A DNA stretch of 64,000 nucleotides from a virus: IMG/VR virus record IMGVR_UViG_3300024496_000011. The stretch is one strand, 5' to 3'. Under the pieces are notes generated by a model, which did no database searches, was not told the DNA's origin, and saw only the letters and a program-made list of their open reading frames with translations. The translations under genes and the position numbers were made by a program. Below, piece after piece: positions 24,661-61,904 of the stretch (positions are counted from its first letter, which is position 1; every line of letters begins with the position of its first letter).

Positions 24661-24832
24661 AAAATACTTCGTCGTAATCGTTTAGGTAAGGTGCAATTTC
24701 TTCATATCGTGGTTCTTGTGTATAAGAATCCACATCAGAATTAATCTCTGACTTGAGACATTCTACCAGAGACTCAAGGTTTCTGACAATAATCTTAAGC
24801 TTTTCTTGATTCATGTTTATCAACCTCGACAA
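24632..24832 (-). CDS. hypothetical protein
   Basis: 66-aa ORF downstream of the promoter at 24838-24866. Confidence 0.65.
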   Translation of the reverse strand: MSRLINMNQEKLKIIVRNLESLVECLKSEINSDVDSYTQEPRYEEIAPYLNDYDEVFYDDDDGYAD

Positions 24833-24837
24833 AGGTA

Positions 24838-24876
24838 ATTATACACAAAAAAAAGAGGGGAGTCAAGTCCCCTCTT
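24838..24876 (-). terminator. Rho-independent terminator with overlapping sigma70 promoter
   Basis: AAGAGGGG-N8-CCCCTCTT followed by U-tract; TTGACT-N17-TATAAT superimposed. Confidence 0.85.
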
Positions 24877-24879
24877 AAA

Positions 24880-24978
24880 TCATTTTGCTGCTACCAGAGT
24901 AGCAAGAGATGCTTTACGACGCCTCTCTTCTTTTTGCTTTTGCTCTTTAATGAGTTGAAGTGCATTAAGTTTTTTCAT
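24880..24978 (-). CDS. 32-aa basic peptide (MKKLNALQLIKEQKQKEERRRKASLATLVAAK)
   Basis: ATGA-coupled to the upstream DUF4278-like gene, GGAGAGG RBS-like sequence, followed by a terminator. Confidence 0.6.
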   Translation of the reverse strand: MKKLNALQLIKEQKQKEERRRKASLATLVAAK

Positions 24979-25127
24979 TTTGACCTCTCCATGGAAAGTT
25001 TATTTCCATTTTCATCAACATAAAACATGGTTCCACGATAGATTTCTACTCGCGGTTCTTGTTTAAATGATTGATTTGGGCGGTTAGCAGTATCATATTC
25101 GATACCACGATATACTACTTTTGACAT
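24975..25127 (-). CDS. DUF4278-like small protein (50 aa)
   Basis: MSKVVYRGIEYD...EIYRG repeated YRG motif; AAGGAG RBS; downstream of a Downstream-peptide-type RNA. Confidence 0.75.
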   Translation of the reverse strand: MSKVVYRGIEYDTANRPNQSFKQEPRVEIYRGTMFYVDENGNKLSMERSK

Positions 25128-25159
25128 TAGGTTTCTCCTTAATGGTTTAGGTTAAAGAG

Positions 25160-25210
25160 CGTTCCTTCAGTCGGCGTTTGCGTTCGCTATTTGCGAATAG
25201 CGAATGAACG
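25160..25210 (-). ncRNA. glutamine-II (Downstream-peptide) riboswitch-like RNA
   Basis: CGTTCA-[TTCGCTATT/AATAGCGAA hairpin]-CGCAAACGCCGACTGAAGGAACG; CGTTC/GAACG closing stem. Confidence 0.75.
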
Positions 25211-25213
25211 ATC

Positions 25214-25462
25214 CGTTCCGCGTCGGCTTACTTCCGTCCTATTAGGTTTTAGCACTTTACTATGAAGTCCTTTCGGAGTTCTAATAACAATCGGTCCTCT
25301 ATCTTTTGAATTACTACATCGTCGTTTTTAACGATGTCCATTAGTTCCATCGCGGTGTCGCAAGAAACTGCAACCTGTTGGATGCTAGATGCTTGTGGCG
25401 CTGAAACGAAGAGGAAAGGAACCCATGCTAAAAGCAAGAGTGCTTTAGTCATAGGATGAACG
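25214..25462 (-). ncRNA. glutamine-I (glnA) riboswitch-like RNA with an ORF in its P2 loop
   Basis: 5' CGTTCA-TCCTAT ... ATAGGA-CGGAAGTAAGCCGACGCGGAACG 3'; P1 CGTTC/GAACG, P2 TCCTAT/ATAGGA. Confidence 0.6.
25249..25452 (-). CDS. 67-aa protein with predicted signal peptide, nested in riboswitch-like RNA
   Basis: MTKALLLLAWVPFLFVSAPQASS hydrophobic leader. Confidence 0.6.
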   Translation of the reverse strand: MTKALLLLAWVPFLFVSAPQASSIQQVAVSCDTAMELMDIVKNDDVVIQKIEDRLLLELRKDFIVKC

Positions 25463-25509
25463 GTAGAGGATTATTATACCTCTAATCAACTTATATAGGA
25501 AGTTTTGTG

Positions 25510-25525
25510 TGTATTTCCTGATACA
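25510..25525. promoter_or_regulatory. NtcA-binding box
   Basis: TGTA-TTTCCTGA-TACA = perfect GTA-N8-TAC with T/A flanks, 32 nt upstream of a minus-strand TATAAT (25473-25478). Confidence 0.6.
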
Positions 25526-25530
25526 ATTTT

Positions 25531-25857
25531 TTACCTCTCAATATAACTTAATGTATGATTGGTAGCATAAAGTTGTTGGATAATTATATCGCATCCAATT
25601 TTAGGATTACAATCTCCACAAGTATAAACATCCACTGCTGCTTTACCTTCTTCAGGCCATGTATGAATACTAATATGACTTTCTGAAAGTAAACAAATTA
25701 CAGTAACTCCCTGTGGTTCAAACTTTTTTGAAATTGTTTGAACCACAGTAGCACCACTTGCAACTGCTGCATTTTCGAGTAAGTCTATAAGACAACGCTC
25801 GTCGTCCAAAAGGACAAACGAGCATCCATACAAGTTAAGTAGATAATGCTTTCCCAT
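25531..25857 (-). CDS. speD: S-adenosylmethionine decarboxylase proenzyme
   Basis: FEPQGVT...LLSESHISIHTWPE.G.AAVDVYTCG. Confidence 0.95.
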   Translation of the reverse strand: MGKHYLLNLYGCSFVLLDDERCLIDLLENAAVASGATVVQTISKKFEPQGVTVICLLSESHISIHTWPEEGKAAVDVYTCGDCNPKIGCDIIIQQLYATNHTLSYIER

Positions 25858-25864
25858 TTTGACG

Positions 25865-26047
25865 TTAGTTTTCTTCCGCTTCTTTTATTAATGAACTTAT
25901 AATATCTTCCGTACCATCCATCGTTTTAATAGTAAACAAAGATGACCTTTGATATTTTTTAATTTTTTTATATTTTTTAAGAAGTTTATTTAGTTCTTCT
26001 TTATAAATTGCTACTTCAATTTTTTCTTCACTAAAACCTTCACTCAT
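25865..26047 (-). CDS. hypothetical protein
   Basis: ORF within operon, ATGA overlap. Confidence 0.65.
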   Translation of the reverse strand: MSEGFSEEKIEVAIYKEELNKLLKKYKKIKKYQRSSLFTIKTMDGTEDIISSLIKEAEEN

Positions 26048-31324: not shown

Positions 31325-31443
31325 TGTTTTTAAAAGCTAAGTAGTCCATCAGGGAAATGGTGGAGATACTTATTTCCTAAACACCCTTAGTTTAGGATAT
31401 GAGAGACGATTTTATACTCCCTATAGGTCTCGGTTTGCGGAGA

Positions 31444-31524
31444 GTTTAACAATGTTGCAAAACATTAAAGATTCGTAACATTTGTTTACCTATTTATAAT
31501 ACACCCCTTTCAGAACTCTGTCAA
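31444..31524 (-). promoter_or_regulatory. psbA promoter region with HLR1-like repeats
   Basis: TTGACA-N17-TATTAT, overlapping TATAAATA, then GTAAACAA-AT-GTTACGAA. Confidence 0.55.
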
Positions 31525-44715: not shown

Positions 44716-45162
44716 TCAGAACTTCCAAGCAAGTCCAACAGTAGGAACAACGGAAGTACCATCAGTCAGAGCAACTTTCACATCAGCAAACACAACTGCA
44801 TGTTCCGCAAGTTGAGTTTCAGCACCTGCTTGAATATAACCAACTGTATCATTATCAAAGGTAAGAATACCAGCATCACCAAAAGCAGCACCACCACCCA
44901 GATAAACATTGGTGTTTTCTGCAACAGCGAGATCGTAGGTTGCGCCAATGGCACCTTCAACCTCGCTATTAATAGTCACTTGAGGACGGACAGAAAGAGG
45001 GAGATTACCTGCCTCTACACGACCAACAATAGTTGCTGCAGCACCTTGACCATCAGTGCCTACGGCAATACCAGGACCAACATAGGAACCTTCAAGACCA
45101 CCAGCAAGTGCTGAACCACCAGCAAAAACAGCAGTAGTAGTAGCAAGAATAATAGATTTCAT
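44716..45162 (-). CDS. small outer-membrane beta-barrel protein
   Basis: signal peptide, alternating amphipathic strands, terminal aromatic (VGLAWKF). Confidence 0.75.
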   Translation of the reverse strand: MKSIILATTTAVFAGGSALAGGLEGSYVGPGIAVGTDGQGAAATIVGRVEAGNLPLSVRPQVTINSEVEGAIGATYDLAVAENTNVYLGGGAAFGDAGILTFDNDTVGYIQAGAETQLAEHAVVFADVKVALTDGTSVVPTVGLAWKF

Positions 45163-56989: not shown

Positions 56990-56995
56990 GAAAAT

Positions 56996-57396
56996 TCAGG
57001 CTCGCCACCAATTCTTTGACTGGAAATTGGAAACCAGGCGGAGAAAGAATTCCCCATCCGCACCACTTGCTCTTGAGAGAAGCAAGAAACTCATAGGGGT
57101 CATTTGACTCCACCACTTAGTTTTGAGAAACTAAGAAAAGTTGGGTTAACTTTGATATCTCGGTAATACCAAAGAATGCACATAAGAATAATACATCCCA
57201 AAGTTTTAGTTTAATAGCAAAAGGTATTGTGAGTAGTCCCCCAATAACTTTTATCATTAAACCGTATTTAAATTCTCCCCACAACATAGTTTGATAACCA
57301 ATTATAAGGAGAATGTTTCCAATCCACCGAAGCAAATCAGATTTAGACATAAGGGGTTTTGCTCCCGACCAGTGCTGTTAAAGTCCATCCGTGACT
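56996..57396 (-). ncRNA. manA-like structured RNA split by an ORF
   Basis: 5' AGTCACGGATGGACT...CTGGTCGGGA; 3' CTTGCT/AGCAAG, GCGGA/TCCGC, CTGG/CCAG stems, CCAATT/AATTGG pseudoknot, GGCGAGCCTG; family identity is from recall. Confidence 0.6.
57117..57350 (-). CDS. 77-aa multi-pass membrane protein inside the manA-like RNA
   Basis: three hydrophobic segments. Confidence 0.65.
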   Translation of the reverse strand: MSKSDLLRWIGNILLIIGYQTMLWGEFKYGLMIKVIGGLLTIPFAIKLKLWDVLFLCAFFGITEISKLTQLFLVSQN

Positions 57397-58479: not shown

Positions 58480-58551
58480 TGGGAATACTGGGAGTTGAAC
58501 CCAGACTAAGCCCTTATAAGGAGCCCGCTCTAACCATTAAGCTATACTCCC
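58480..58551 (-). tRNA. tRNA-Ile(UAU)
   Basis: GGGAGTA/TATTCCC acceptor, CTTATAA anticodon loop, TTCAACT. Confidence 0.88.
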
Positions 58552-58590
58552 CTGAATCCAGATCTATAATAGCGGATCTGGAACGCTTTG

Positions 58591-58821
58591 TCAAGAACCT
58601 TCTTCGTGGTCGGTGTGTATTCGTATCACATCGTCGTCCACATCAGATTCTACTGCAAACTTTATGGTTTCGTTGTATGGAACAATCACTGCGCTTCTTT
58701 CTCCATCAGTAATAATAAACGATTCACCATTTTCTACTCTTTGTATTAGATTGTCAAAATCTGCTTGAAACTCTTCAACCGTAAATTTTTGGAGATCTGA
58801 AAGTTCTGGATACATTTTCAT
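58591..58821 (-). CDS. Phd/YefM antitoxin-like protein
   Basis: FTVEEFQADFDNLIQRVENGESFIITDGERSAVIVPY. Confidence 0.6.
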   Translation of the reverse strand: MKMYPELSDLQKFTVEEFQADFDNLIQRVENGESFIITDGERSAVIVPYNETIKFAVESDVDDDVIRIHTDHEEGS

Positions 58822-58839
58822 AAAGTGAAGTTTTATGAG

Positions 58840-58913
58840 TCGGGGTGACAGGATTCGAACCTGCGACCCTCTGCTCCCAAAGCAGATGCGCTACCAAGCT
58901 GCGCTACACCCCG
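58840..58913 (-). tRNA. tRNA-Pro(UGG)
   Basis: CGGGGTG/CACCCCG acceptor, TTTGGGA loop. Confidence 0.95.
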
Positions 58914-59026
58914 TTACTTGTTTTTGTGTATGTACATAATACCAGCAAAAGGTACAACTGTCAATCCCATTCCACAAAGAAAAAGAAAGAAAGGACTTGC
59001 TGCTAGGGTTTCAACCAAGTGGAAAA

Positions 59027-59227
59027 TCATCTTCCTCTCCAGTTCTTGTATTCATAATACATGTATTGGTCAACTTCGTCAAGTCCTTGTAAAGGGGCGT
59101 TAACATTCCAAATAGACCATTCTTTGCAAAACTGTTTAATATCTATATTGTTTACAATATTGTGCCCATACATTCTCACAAAAGAAGACATTGCAAAATT
59201 GTATCTTTGTTTATTTGACATATGCAT
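59027..59227 (-). CDS. hypothetical protein
   Basis: 66-aa ORF. Confidence 0.6.
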   Translation of the reverse strand: MHMSNKQRYNFAMSSFVRMYGHNIVNNIDIKQFCKEWSIWNVNAPLQGLDEVDQYMYYEYKNWRGR

Positions 59228-59295
59228 AATTAAGTCCCCAATAAATCCACAAACTAATTGTAGAAAAATATATTAAGGATAATACAAAAAGTGTT

Positions 59296-59409
59296 TTAGT
59301 CATCTTCTTCGTCCTCGTAAGTTGATGGTTCTTCAAAGAGTTCATCCATTTTCTGTTGAAAAACTCTTTGGTATAGTTCTTGTAAGTCTTCTTCGGTGAA
59401 TCTTACCAT
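59296..59409 (-). CDS. 37-aa acidic peptide
   Basis: MVRFTEEDLQELYQRVFQQKMDELFEEPSTYEDEEDD; AGAGAGA RBS-like sequence. Confidence 0.45.
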   Translation of the reverse strand: MVRFTEEDLQELYQRVFQQKMDELFEEPSTYEDEEDD

Positions 59410-59414
59410 TCTCT

Positions 59415-59615
59415 CTATAAGGATATTTTTAACCAGGGTAATAGAGGAGGAATAACACCAACTAATCTTAAAAGTCCCTCAGCAAATAAAGCAAGAACCA
59501 CCCAACCGACGCACATACTAATGATAGAAGCATTACGGTTGTGTCTTCTGATAGCATCATCGATCATCTCCTGAACTTCAGAACGGGTAATAAACTCTTC
59601 TTGTTCGTGCATCAT
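59415..59615 (-). CDS. small membrane protein
   Basis: TRSEVQEMIDDAIRRHNRNASIISM followed by a TM segment. Confidence 0.7.
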   Translation of the reverse strand: MMHEQEEFITRSEVQEMIDDAIRRHNRNASIISMCVGWVVLALFAEGLLRLVGVIPPLLPWLKISL

Positions 59616-59761
59616 TTCTCGTCTCCAAGAAACTTTGCAAGAGGATCTTTGCGGGTTTTTAAAATCTCACATGCTCTATAATAAAACATATTATTGGTGT
59701 TACCAGAGGCTTCAAAAGTTGCCTTGATCTTCACCCAATTTTCATAGGTGTGTTGATCCAT
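59612..59761 (-). CDS. 49-aa hypothetical protein
   Basis: MDQHTYENWVKIKATFEASGNTNNMFYYRACEI; ATGA overlap. Confidence 0.55.
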   Translation of the reverse strand: MDQHTYENWVKIKATFEASGNTNNMFYYRACEILKTRKDPLAKFLGDEK

Positions 59762-59874
59762 AGGTTTGTCCCTGTGATACTATTATATACTAATCACAGA
59801 CACTTCAAAGTCAACTTTTTGTGTTCATATCGTAACACTGTTGAAGAAATTATTAAATTTGTAAGTTATCTTAA

Positions 59875-59957
59875 CGGAAAGAACAGGAATCGAACCTGCG
59901 AGGGCGTTAACCCCAGCCGCTTTCAAGGCGGTGTCCTCGACCAACCGGACTCTTTCC
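59875..59957 (-). tRNA. tRNA-Ser(UGA)
   Basis: GGAAAGA/TCTTTCC acceptor, CTTGAAA loop, long variable arm. Confidence 0.93.
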
Positions 59958-59967
59958 AGTAATAGGT

Positions 59968-60219
59968 TCAACGAACCTCAAAATCCAAACGCTTTACTTT
60001 GCGTTGGCGTCTTGCCTCTTGCCAGGCAATATCTTGTGAAGTCAGAACATTTGATTTTTGTTCTTTCTGAATAGAGTTTAGCATAACAATACGAGATAAG
60101 TCAACTGCTGAAACTTTATCTCCACGGATCGTTGCCATATTAGGACATCCACAAGTGACTGTTTTTGATGGGTGTCCTGTTAATTCTTTATTGCAATCTT
60201 TGCATCTTATTGAAATCAT
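59968..60219 (-). CDS. Cys-motif hypothetical protein
   Basis: CKDC...CGCPN. Confidence 0.7.
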   Translation of the reverse strand: MISIRCKDCNKELTGHPSKTVTCGCPNMATIRGDKVSAVDLSRIVMLNSIQKEQKSNVLTSQDIAWQEARRQRKVKRLDFEVR

Positions 60220-60234
60220 TATTCTTCATCCTAT

Positions 60235-60669
60235 TCATTGTAAGTGAGACCTTAACATCCAAATAAACTTACCGTGAGACTCCATCAAATCTTGAACTAG
60301 ATTAGCAGTTGCATATTGCTTTTGTGCTTCGGATTCCTCTGAAATCTCTTGCATCATTTCACAAAACTTTTCATTATTTTCAAGAAGTTCTTGAAGCATT
60401 TCTCTTGCTCCAGATGAACTTGCTGCTTCTTTGATTTGAGTTACCTCAAGCATTCTCGAAAGAGAACTGAGAGGTTTTACATTCAAATAACGCATATGTT
60501 CTGAGAGACGATCGATCTCTTCAAACATAGTCTCATACTGACCACCAAAAAGTTGATGGAGTTGAGTAAAGTCTTCACCTACAACATTCCAGTGAAATGC
60601 CCAAGTTTTATGGAATAAAACAAAAAGCGATGACTGTGCATCACTCAAGAGTTTATAAAGTTTTTCCAT
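60235..60669 (-). CDS. dps: Dps/ferritin-like protein
   Basis: HKTWAFHWNVVG.DF..LH.LF..QYE......D..SEH...H.K..WML. Confidence 0.92.
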   Translation of the reverse strand: MEKLYKLLSDAQSSLFVLFHKTWAFHWNVVGEDFTQLHQLFGGQYETMFEEIDRLSEHMRYLNVKPLSSLSRMLEVTQIKEAASSSGAREMLQELLENNEKFCEMMQEISEESEAQKQYATANLVQDLMESHGKFIWMLRSHLQ

Positions 60670-60699
60670 TATACTCTTTTTTTATTTTTATTTATCAAG

Positions 60700-60772
60700 T
60701 GGGAGCAGAGGGATTCGAACCCCCGACATTCTGCGTGTAAAGCAGACGCTGCTACCGCTGAGCTATGCTCCC
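60700..60772 (-). tRNA. tRNA-Val(UAC)
   Basis: GGGAGCA/TGCTCCC acceptor, TTTACAC loop. Confidence 0.93.
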
Positions 60773-61183
60773 GTATTTAGGATGCCCACCGTTTTTATAT
60801 CTTCCACCTCTACTCTTATTTGGAGGTTGAGTTTTAAGAGAGTGGCAATTTGGACAGAGAACCTGCAAATTGCTTGGCGAATGATTAAATGGGTCATCGT
60901 CAATATGGTCGATTTCTAATGGAACTTTACCAGTATGGATATTAGTTCCAGACCAACCACATTTAGAGCACTTGTGTAGTGCTTCCTCCAAAAGATAGTT
61001 TCTTACATATTGCGATAAATTGTAAGAAGAACCACCTGAAACTAAACCTTGTTTCCATTCAGTAATATACTGATTTCTTGTGTGTTCTTGTTGACATTTG
61101 TTGTTACAATACTTACCTCTTTTATGATAAGGATTGTAAGTAAATATCGTAGAACAATTTAAACAAGTAGCGGTTTGTTTCAT
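60752..61183 (-). mobile_element. HNH endonuclease
   Basis: CSKCGW...LEIDHIDDD..N...NLQVLCPNCHSLKT; last 7 codons overlap tRNA-Val. Confidence 0.88.
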
Positions 61184-61188
61184 CAGTT

Positions 61189-61225
61189 TAGTAGAACACT
61201 TTATTATTTATAAGGTATTCTACTA
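61189..61225 (-). promoter_or_regulatory. hairpin enclosing a late promoter upstream of the HNH gene
   Basis: TAGTAGAATAC/GTGTTCTACTA stem, TATAAATA in the loop. Confidence 0.7.
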
Positions 61226-61226
61226 A

Positions 61227-61298
61227 CTCCCCCGACAAGATTCGAACTTGTGACCTGGAAATTAACAGTTTCTCGCGCTACCGCTGCGCCACAGGGGA
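61227..61298 (-). tRNA. tRNA-Asn(GUU)
   Basis: TCCCCTG/CGGGGGA acceptor, CTGTTAA loop. Confidence 0.93.
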
Positions 61299-61353
61299 AT
61301 AAGTGTAGGTGAACCAACCTACAGTTTAGAGATTGCTCTCAAGGTCTTTTATG

Positions 61354-61428
61354 TGCCTCTGGCTGGGAATCGAACCCAGTATCCAACTCCTTTGTCAGGG
61401 TGTCCTTACCAATAGACTACGCAGAGGA
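61354..61428 (-). ncRNA. non-canonical tRNA-like element
   Basis: intact D arm and T arm (CTGGG-TTCGATT-CCCAG), bulged acceptor stem, no 5-bp anticodon stem. Confidence 0.65.
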
Positions 61429-61540
61429 AATGGGAAGTATTAGAGGACTTCCCAGCAAGGGTGATCAATCCCTTGACCTATGAGAGTCCCATAGGATTTA
61501 GTTGGCGTCTTTCTATGCTATCTGCATAACGACTACCAAG

Positions 61541-61612
61541 AGCGAAAGACGAGATTCGAACTCGCAACAACCTGCTTGGAAGGCAGGGACTCTACCGTTG
61601 AGTTACTTTCGC
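61541..61612 (-). tRNA. tRNA-Gly(UCC)
   Basis: GCGAAAG/CTTTCGC acceptor, CTTCCAA loop. Confidence 0.93.
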
Positions 61613-61621
61613 AATGAGACA

Positions 61622-61650
61622 ATCATAAACTATTTAAGTTAGATTGTCAA
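61622..61650 (-). promoter_or_regulatory. sigma70 promoter for the Gly-Asn tRNA block
   Basis: TTGACA-N17-TATGAT. Confidence 0.75.
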
Positions 61651-61651
61651 G

Positions 61652-61733
61652 TGTCGATGAAAGGACTTGAACCTTCATGGATTGCTCCACTGGAACCTAA
61701 ACCCAGCGCGTATACCAATTCCGCCACATCGAC
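61652..61733 (-). tRNA. tRNA-Leu(UAG)
   Basis: GTCGATG/CATCGAC acceptor, TTTAGGT loop, long variable arm. Confidence 0.93.
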
Positions 61734-61830
61734 TAGATGGAGTAAGCGTAATATACCTCAAGGATATAACAGAGGCTTACCCTCTATCTTGCTACGGCAT
61801 TCTGGTTTATCTTTCCAGCGCAAGTAGCAA

Positions 61831-61904
61831 CGACTCAGGAGGGACTTGAACCCCCGACCAACTGCTTAGAAGGCAGATGCTCTATCCAACTGAGCTACTG
61901 AGTC
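61831..61904 (-). tRNA. tRNA-Arg(UCU)
   Basis: GACTCAG/CTGAGTC acceptor, CTTCTAA loop. Confidence 0.95.

Follow-up and report, generated by a model that had tools for sequence, protein, structure and literature searches.

A candidate glutamine-I riboswitch predicted to fold around a 67-codon gene in a cyanophage operon leader

The window analyzed here, the whole 64,000-nucleotide stretch of IMG/VR record IMGVR_UViG_3300024496_000011, comes from a T4-like cyanophage of the family Kyanoviridae, and its nearest named relatives are Synechococcus phages. Downstream of speD (25857-25531, minus strand) lies a small operon on the same strand, consisting of a leader, an open reading frame of 67 codons (ORF67, 25249-25452), a DUF4278-like gene, a 32-codon ORF and a terminator. 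In minus-strand order, the leader reads CGTTCA (25462-25457), TCCTAT (25456-25451), ORF67, a 6-nt spacer, ATAGGA (25242-25237) and CGGAAGTA (25236-25229), followed by AGCCGACG, a single C, GGAACG (ending at 25214), GAT and an aptamer-like compact unit from 25210 to 25160. The DUF4278-like (IF17-like) small gene (24975-25127, minus strand), presumed to be the regulated gene, matches PHROG family phrog_5049 (E = 6.5e-8) and, below the cut-off of 25.3 bits, PF14105 (E = 5e-4, 20.8 bits). The last gene of the unit is the 32-codon ORF (24880-24978, minus strand), which overlaps the end of the DUF4278-like gene in an ATGA and for which searches of Pfam and PHROG returned no family. The operon ends with an intrinsic terminator-like hairpin and T-run (24853-24876, minus strand). 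A strong sigma-70-like promoter for the gene at 24832-24632 (TTGACT-17-TATAAT, 11 of 12 matches) overlaps this hairpin (24838-24876, minus strand), with its −35 box inside the terminator loop. Elsewhere the window carries a wcaG RNA (56994-57094, minus strand, 98.3 bits), a PhotoRC-II RNA (31362-31457, minus strand, 78.4 bits) and ten tRNA genes, mostly clustered at 58480-61904.

Two further features frame the leader. Between the compact unit and the DUF4278-like gene, a predicted hairpin formed by CUCUUUAA and UUAAGGAG (25135-25159, minus strand) hides AAGGAG (25140-25135), the ribosome-binding site of that gene; the minimum-energy fold and all constrained folds contain it, and its sequence is kept in most loci. 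At the other end, an inverted repeat, TAGAGG-TATAATAAT-CCTCTA (25464-25484, minus strand), lies just 5′ of the first aptamer strand. Its arms co-vary among loci (L004-L083; L001 803-817), being AGAGG/CCTCT, AGGGG/CCCCT or AGGAG/CTCCT, and other leader types have GTGTTA/TAACAC and AGGTATG/CATACCT. The TATAAT at its center (25478-25473) may serve the operon promoter as its −10 box, and in S-PM2 the equivalent palindrome is overlapped by a TTGACT-17-TATAAT promoter. The repeat may act as an RNA hairpin in transcripts reading through from speD, as a 5′ cap hairpin or as a DNA operator.

ORF67 starts with an ATG at 25452-25450, ends with a TAA at 25251-25249 and lacks a Shine-Dalgarno sequence upstream. 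A preceding sequence-only reading had described an intact ORF of 67 codons at this place, and the stretch 25452-25249 does read as one on the minus strand, with the frame kept in homologs. At least 250 homologs were found, of 66-70 amino acids and 62-100% identity. Thirty-five of the 67 residues are invariant in an 18-sequence alignment, cysteines C31 and C67 included, and the median pN/pS over 39 distinct nucleotide versions is 0.40. Along the hydrophobic N-terminal segment the second codon position stays conserved, and all indels are multiples of three, falling inside a variable stretch of ~70 nt that never gains a stop. Judging from these sequence comparisons, ORF67 is a real gene under selection. 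The signal peptide that had been proposed for its product is compatible with the sequence, in which K3, a 13-residue hydrophobic run and a variable linker can be recognized by eye. The protein has no Pfam family and no PHROG, tblastn against 50,697 named phage records gave no match, and the ESM Atlas holds look-alikes below threshold only. An AlphaFold2 model with a mean pLDDT of 56, in which a disordered N-terminus is followed by two helices, is too poor for a fold search.

The half-sites on either side of ORF67 had been read as a glnA-type aptamer with its P2 stem closed around the intact gene. This identification is strengthened by unsplit homologous aptamers in isolated relatives, since S-PM2, S-CREM1 and DSL-LC02 carry the same aptamer at the homologous place with a P2 loop of 3-4 nt. 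The S-CREM1 copy, CGTTCATCC-GAAA-GGACGGAAGTAAGCCGACGCGGAACGGAT, differs from the window only in the loop, and those of S-PM2 and DSL-LC02 are similar. Scored against RF01739, the unsplit copies reach 35.6 bits in DSL-LC02, above the 35-bit cut-off, and 24.4 and 20.4 bits in the others. DSL-LC02 also has another ORF, of 50 codons, which lies in the second unit's hairpin. In the window, cmscan at the gathering score finds no glutamine riboswitch, as had been anticipated for a split aptamer, and a permissive scan gives a sole RF01739 match at 25156-25212 (33.1 bits, below the 35-bit gathering score). Covariance-model scans miss the sensor because its stem, as predicted, closes around a whole gene.

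Read as one unit, CGUUCA, P2, ACGGAAGUA, P3 and GAAGGAACG agree with all upper-case positions of the family consensus. The core junction CGGAAGUA (25229-25236, minus strand) fits the upper-case RF01739 consensus ACGGAAGUA, which is matched exactly at A25237-A25229. A second exact ACGGAAGTA occurs at 44750-44758 on the plus strand; it has no flanking aptamer elements and was set aside as a chance match. In the solved glutamine-I aptamer (structure 5DDP), for which the ligand contacts are named, glutamine is bound by the C1:G59 pair (PMC6698751). C25462, the first base of the outer P1 5′ strand CGUUC (25458-25462, minus strand), would correspond to C1. On the 3′ side, GAAG (the loop-E side) and the strand GAACG (25164-25160), together at 25160-25168 on the minus strand, fit the Rfam consensus GAAGGAACG.

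P2 would be formed by UCCUAU (25451-25456, minus strand), which RNAalifold pairs with 25242-25237, and by the invariant AUAGGA (25237-25242, minus strand) that begins 6 nt past the ORF67 stop; the loop between the two strands measures 208 nt. The 5′ strand ends with the A and U of the ORF67 ATG, so the start codon does lie in the predicted stem as claimed, and the coordinates given earlier for CGTTCA-TCCTAT (25462-25451), ATAGGA (25242-25237) and GAACG (25218-25214) are all correct. Among 87 distinct ORF67 regions from viral contigs, CGTTCA, TCCTAT and ATAGGA are unchanged in 84. The other three regions are without the 3′ half and are the only ones with a mutated P1 strand (AGTTCA, that is, AGUUC in place of CGUUC). 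In 27 of 27 leader sequences, all six P2 pairs are standard and never vary. The suggested search for TCCTAT/ATAGGA covariation therefore confirmed conservation and yielded no covariation (zero variants in 27 leaders and 87 regions), a test that is uninformative rather than failed because both strands are invariant; the same holds for P1, which like the ORF-spanning P2 shows no covariation in the ORF67 family, since its pairs never vary. The distance from the stop codon to ATAGGA, on the other hand, differs among loci: at one extreme the two overlap, the stop TAG being part of ATAGGA, and at the other they are 8 nt apart. That the spacer varies and ATAGGA does not indicates that the non-coding 3′ strand of P2 is under a constraint of its own.

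The regions without the 3′ half belong to one lineage (L011, L012 and L016), which keeps ORF67 with the operon terminator directly after its stop and no longer has the 3′ half of the riboswitch, the inner core described below, the DUF4278-like gene and the 32-codon ORF. Expression of ORF67 thus does not need the sensor, because this lineage retains the gene without the 3′ half. The 5′ half-site reads AGTTCA-TCCTAT in L011, L012, L016 and L058 (~1489-1760 in each), which makes these contigs a natural deletion variant. A terminator combined with an overlapping promoter is also found directly 3′ of ORF67 in the L011 lineage.

CGUUC (25462-25458) has two possible GAACG partners in the leader, 25218-25214 and 25164-25160. 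The sequence-only reading had chosen the former, and here our analysis departs from it. The strand that follows the core junction, S1 (AGCCGACG, 25221-25228, minus strand), can pair in antiparallel fashion with S2 (CGCCGACT, 25176-25169), located just before GAAGGAACG. Three of the eight S1/S2 pairs change on both sides among 27 ORF67 leaders (A-U to G-C, G-C to A-U and G-C to U-A). Across 262 leaders, S1 and S2 occur in 25 combinations; pairing is kept in most of them, and a few carry extra mismatches. The variants include C-G and A-U end pairs as well as a shortening of both strands in step to AGUCG/CGACU, and the helix contains two conserved A.C mismatches. If S1 and S2 were folded as local mini-hairpins, as the Rfam model would read them, most variants would retain one pair. 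Given the S1/S2 helix and no pseudoknot, CGUUC at 25462-25458 has to pair with GAACG at 25164-25160, and 25218-25214 with CGUUC at 25210-25206. RNAalifold independently gives the outer P1 (25164-25160 with 25462-25458), the long-range P2 and the inner hairpin. The partner favored earlier, 25218-25214, is preceded by CGCG and not by GAAG, and the nested arrangement alone supplies every conserved element of the family, GAAGGAACG (25168-25160) included. On the strength of the compensatory changes, the outer P1 most likely closes with 25164-25160 and not with 25218-25214.

In this arrangement, P3 (25228-25221 with 25176-25169) encloses a second three-way junction, circularly permuted and less canonical than the outer one. 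Its P1 would be the hairpin GAACG-GAU-CGUUC (25206-25218, minus strand), a pairing given by RNAalifold; its partners were assigned from the S1/S2 topology because the strands are invariant. Its P2 would be the hairpin UUCGCUAUU-CGCA-AAUAGCGAA (25183-25204, minus strand), which shows compensatory changes at three pairs and holds no ORF in this phage. The inner core CGCAAA (25182-25177) follows, directly joined to S2, the 3′ strand of P3 (CGCCGACU, 25176-25169; together 25169-25182, minus strand). When the same sequence is split into two "tandem" units, the scores of both stay below threshold because each alone is without one conserved block.

Thermodynamics was also considered as a judge between the tandem and nested folds, and was replaced by covariation, since neither the long-range nor the nested fold is favored by it: the computed energies are −83.7 kcal/mol for the nested, −88.1 for the tandem and −93.6 for the unconstrained fold, nearest-neighbor values that omit tertiary and ligand contributions. 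The long-range P2, when forced, lies only 1.5 kcal/mol above the minimum-energy fold. In the unconstrained fold, CCUAUG pairs locally with CAUGGG and not in the long-range P2.

The coding sequence of ORF67 seems to carry a further constraint. Synonymous sites are nearly invariant at codons 36-45 and 58-62, and several codons are used at other conserved residues. Within the helices that RNAalifold predicts inside ORF67, synonymous heterozygosity is 0.07, compared with 0.28 elsewhere (P = 5e-5, Mann-Whitney test), a comparison that is partly circular because RNAalifold favors conserved columns. The frozen codon blocks are an observation independent of the predicted structure, and two of the helices show one compensatory pair each. 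These frozen sites suggest that the coding RNA also folds into helices that join the two strands of P2. The ORF67 RNA also has invariant blocks that resemble P1 and are complementary to each other, CAUGGGUUCC and GGAACUAAUG (25416-25425 with 25335-25344, minus strand), and a hairpin CAUCGUU-AAAAAC-GACGAUG (25313-25334, minus strand). GGAAC and GUUCC blocks in this RNA could pair with the P1 strands of the sensor and give alternative folds.

Contigs of four RNA libraries were compared with 24700-25950 for a look at expression. Two of them span 25123-25453 and 25132-25473 (the second ending in adapter sequence), another stops at 25466, and in one run a contig also continues through speD. These contigs, which cannot show strand, ends or level and may stem from DNA carry-over, hint weakly that ORF67 and both cores lie on one RNA beginning near 25466-25473.

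We then consider how widely genes are nested in such leaders. A sample drawn from viral contigs by the junction GGAACGGATCGTTCA alone, and thus blind to ORFs, contained 75 true leaders. At least one nested ORF is present in 44 of them, located in the outer P2 in 16, in the inner P2 in 34 and in both in 6. The ATG lies in the stem, 3-7 nt past CGTTCA, in 49 of the 50 nested ORFs; the exception (L118) has its own AGGAGG site. Stop codons are found in or beside the 3′ stem strand or within the conserved core. In one outer-P2 family the frame runs on across the core as far as the UAA of GUAAG, and its C-terminus IGRK and stop are encoded by GGACGGAAGUAA. The common family in the inner P2 extends over both the inner core and the P3 strand before ending at the UGA of GACUGAAGG, its C-terminus DAKAD and stop being encoded by GACGCAAAAGCCGACUGA. 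A common origin of the nested ORFs was examined with hhalign: ORF67 gave probabilities below 3% against the two other main families, and the short DAKAD family gave 69% against the L087/L146 type. At the level of profile comparison, there is no sign of a single shared origin for ORF67 and the other nested ORF families. In addition, the inner GAACG/CGUUC hairpin of L043-L047 (~1720-1770) carries a 45-nt insert in its loop, with a possible mini-ORF of 16 codons from CCTATG; if this is real, the leader RNA would have a third site of insertion.

In the interpretation that we propose, a composite glutamine-I riboswitch opens the small operon, with two hairpins of its outer aptamer stretched, one around a gene and the other around a second core. 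A ribosome initiating on ORF67 would cover the 5′ strands of P1 and P2, and one terminating there would cover the 3′ strand of P2 and the core. Translation of ORF67 and folding of the sensor would then be mutually exclusive, as both kinds of ribosome sit on sensor strands: the sensor would fold only while ORF67 is untranslated, and a folded sensor stabilized by glutamine would hide the ORF67 start. DUF4278 has been linked to glutamine riboswitches, which act as ON switches on DUF4278/IF17 genes (Klahn 2018; PMC6212724). If the sensor is an ON switch for the DUF4278-like gene, as at gifB of Synechocystis, one RNA would have a reciprocal output, high glutamine favoring the DUF4278 protein and low glutamine favoring ORF67; the ON behavior reported for such genes makes this the simplest reading. 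We regard this competition between the nested sensor and ORF67 translation, with opposite glutamine responses of the two genes, as fairly probable. A broader version is offered only tentatively, as a possibility somewhat short of probable: the leader would be a two-way device in which glutamine binding and the passage of ribosomes over the nested gene bear on the same helices, the synonymous sites of ORF67 would be shaped as a scaffold for P2, and nested genes, because about half of the leaders carry one, would be a general cyanophage design for nitrogen sensing.

The same observations have to be weighed against an insertion that is merely tolerated. The distal loops of P2 and P3 would accept extra RNA because they point away from the ligand pocket, small phage genes would have settled there for want of any other place at which a compact leader can take up DNA and keep its switch, the riboswitch would work normally, and ORF67 would be expressed independently of glutamine. 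This agrees with the solved glutamine-I structure, in which P3 projects sideways and P2 is a simple stem-loop (PMC6698751), with the occupation of the loops by ORF families of no detectable relationship, with the stand-alone ORF67 of the L011 lineage and with the L118 ORF that brings its own AGGAGG 15 nt into the loop. Against it, 49 of 50 nested ORFs, from several families, have their ATG inside a stem strand and no ribosome-binding sequence, and the stops fall within the conserved core or in or beside the stem strand on the 3′ side. Since a ribosome on the nested ORF must unfold the aptamer, full independence is hard to picture. The position of the AUG near the stem could still reflect mere genome compaction. 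Taken together, we consider a tolerated insertion without coupling rather unlikely.

It is far less probable that the insertion destroyed the upstream sensor, leaving 25212-25156 as the only working aptamer and the half-sites as decaying relics. Rfam does detect 25156-25212 alone (33.1 bits), and the thermodynamic fold need not join the halves of the upstream unit, but 84 of 87 regions keep both half-sites and the CGGAAGUA core unchanged while adjacent non-coding bases vary, and P1 decays only where the 3′ half has been lost. Moreover, the compact element is without the GGAAGUA core of the family, having GCAAAC instead, and its P3 strand pairs with the upstream unit through compensatory changes. 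Even harder to sustain is the idea that the 208-nt insert is no gene at all and forms a structured RNA domain, an extension of P2 in which one frame is open by chance. The almost frozen synonymous sites at codons 36-45 and 58-62 would fit such a domain, as would the RNAalifold helices in these blocks, of which two have a single compensatory pair apiece. Yet the frame is open in all full-length copies, indels come in multiples of three in a variable stretch of ~70 nt that never gains a stop, codon position 2 is conserved across the hydrophobic N-terminus along with two invariant cysteines, and the ORF was retained after the 3′ half of the riboswitch was lost. We consider this last account highly improbable.

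Riboswitch aptamers are usually taken as compact and non-coding, and genome annotation relies on that; re-annotation would be called for in about half of these phage leaders. If folding and translation compete as proposed above, one RNA would integrate a metabolite signal and ribosome occupancy, with opposite outputs for two genes. Cyanophages would then use glutamine, together with a homolog of a glutamine-synthetase inhibitor, to read the nitrogen status of the host during infection. A literature search found "tandem" glnA RNAs, with no ORF in an aptamer loop and no nested double core in the papers retrieved (PMC2864571, PMC9964418, PMC6212724 and PMC6698751), and it found no paper reporting an opposite-output logic of metabolite and ribosome occupancy for a riboswitch.

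The tandem RNAs have the same two-core leader. glnA RNAs are known to occur sometimes in tandem (Weinberg et al. 2010; PMC2864571), and the element of S-CREM1 has been annotated as a single glnA riboswitch (PMC9964418); S-CREM1, S-PM2 and DSL-LC02 carry the homologous element. In these descriptions the cores stand side by side and no ORF is mentioned, whereas covariation here places one core in the P3 of the other. With the glutamine-I family (RF01739, e.g., the gifB leader of Synechocystis; PMC6212724), the window leader shares CGUUCA, a predicted P2 closed by U/C...G/A, ACGGAAGUA, P3 and GAAGGAACG, as well as the three-way-junction logic and the place before a DUF4278/IF17-like gene. It differs in that P2 would close over 208 protein-coding nucleotides with a start codon in the stem, and P3 over a second core. 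The element consequently extends over ~300 nt, compared with ~55-60 for RF01739, and is missed by the RF01739 covariance model. The inner core, with CGUUCA, a hairpin, CGCAA and, further on, CGGAACGG, also resembles the consensus of glutamine-II (the Downstream-peptide motif, RF01704), and both are placed before small peptides of DUF4278 type. The S-PM2 equivalent scores 24.6 bits with RF01704, every score is below the gathering score of 33 bits, and a pseudoknot architecture of the RF01704 type is not evident in the leader.

A broader comparison is offered by RNAs in which the same bases serve both structure and coding. Homing-endonuclease or maturase ORFs sit in the loops of group I and group II introns, and SgrS/SgrT is a dual-function RNA. 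ORF67 resembles both in this double use of its bases. The hosts in those cases are a ribozyme or a small RNA, and the intron ORFs differ further from ORF67, which shows no sign of mobility functions; here the predicted host senses a metabolite and belongs to an mRNA leader, and the start codon of the guest gene lies within the sensor stem itself.
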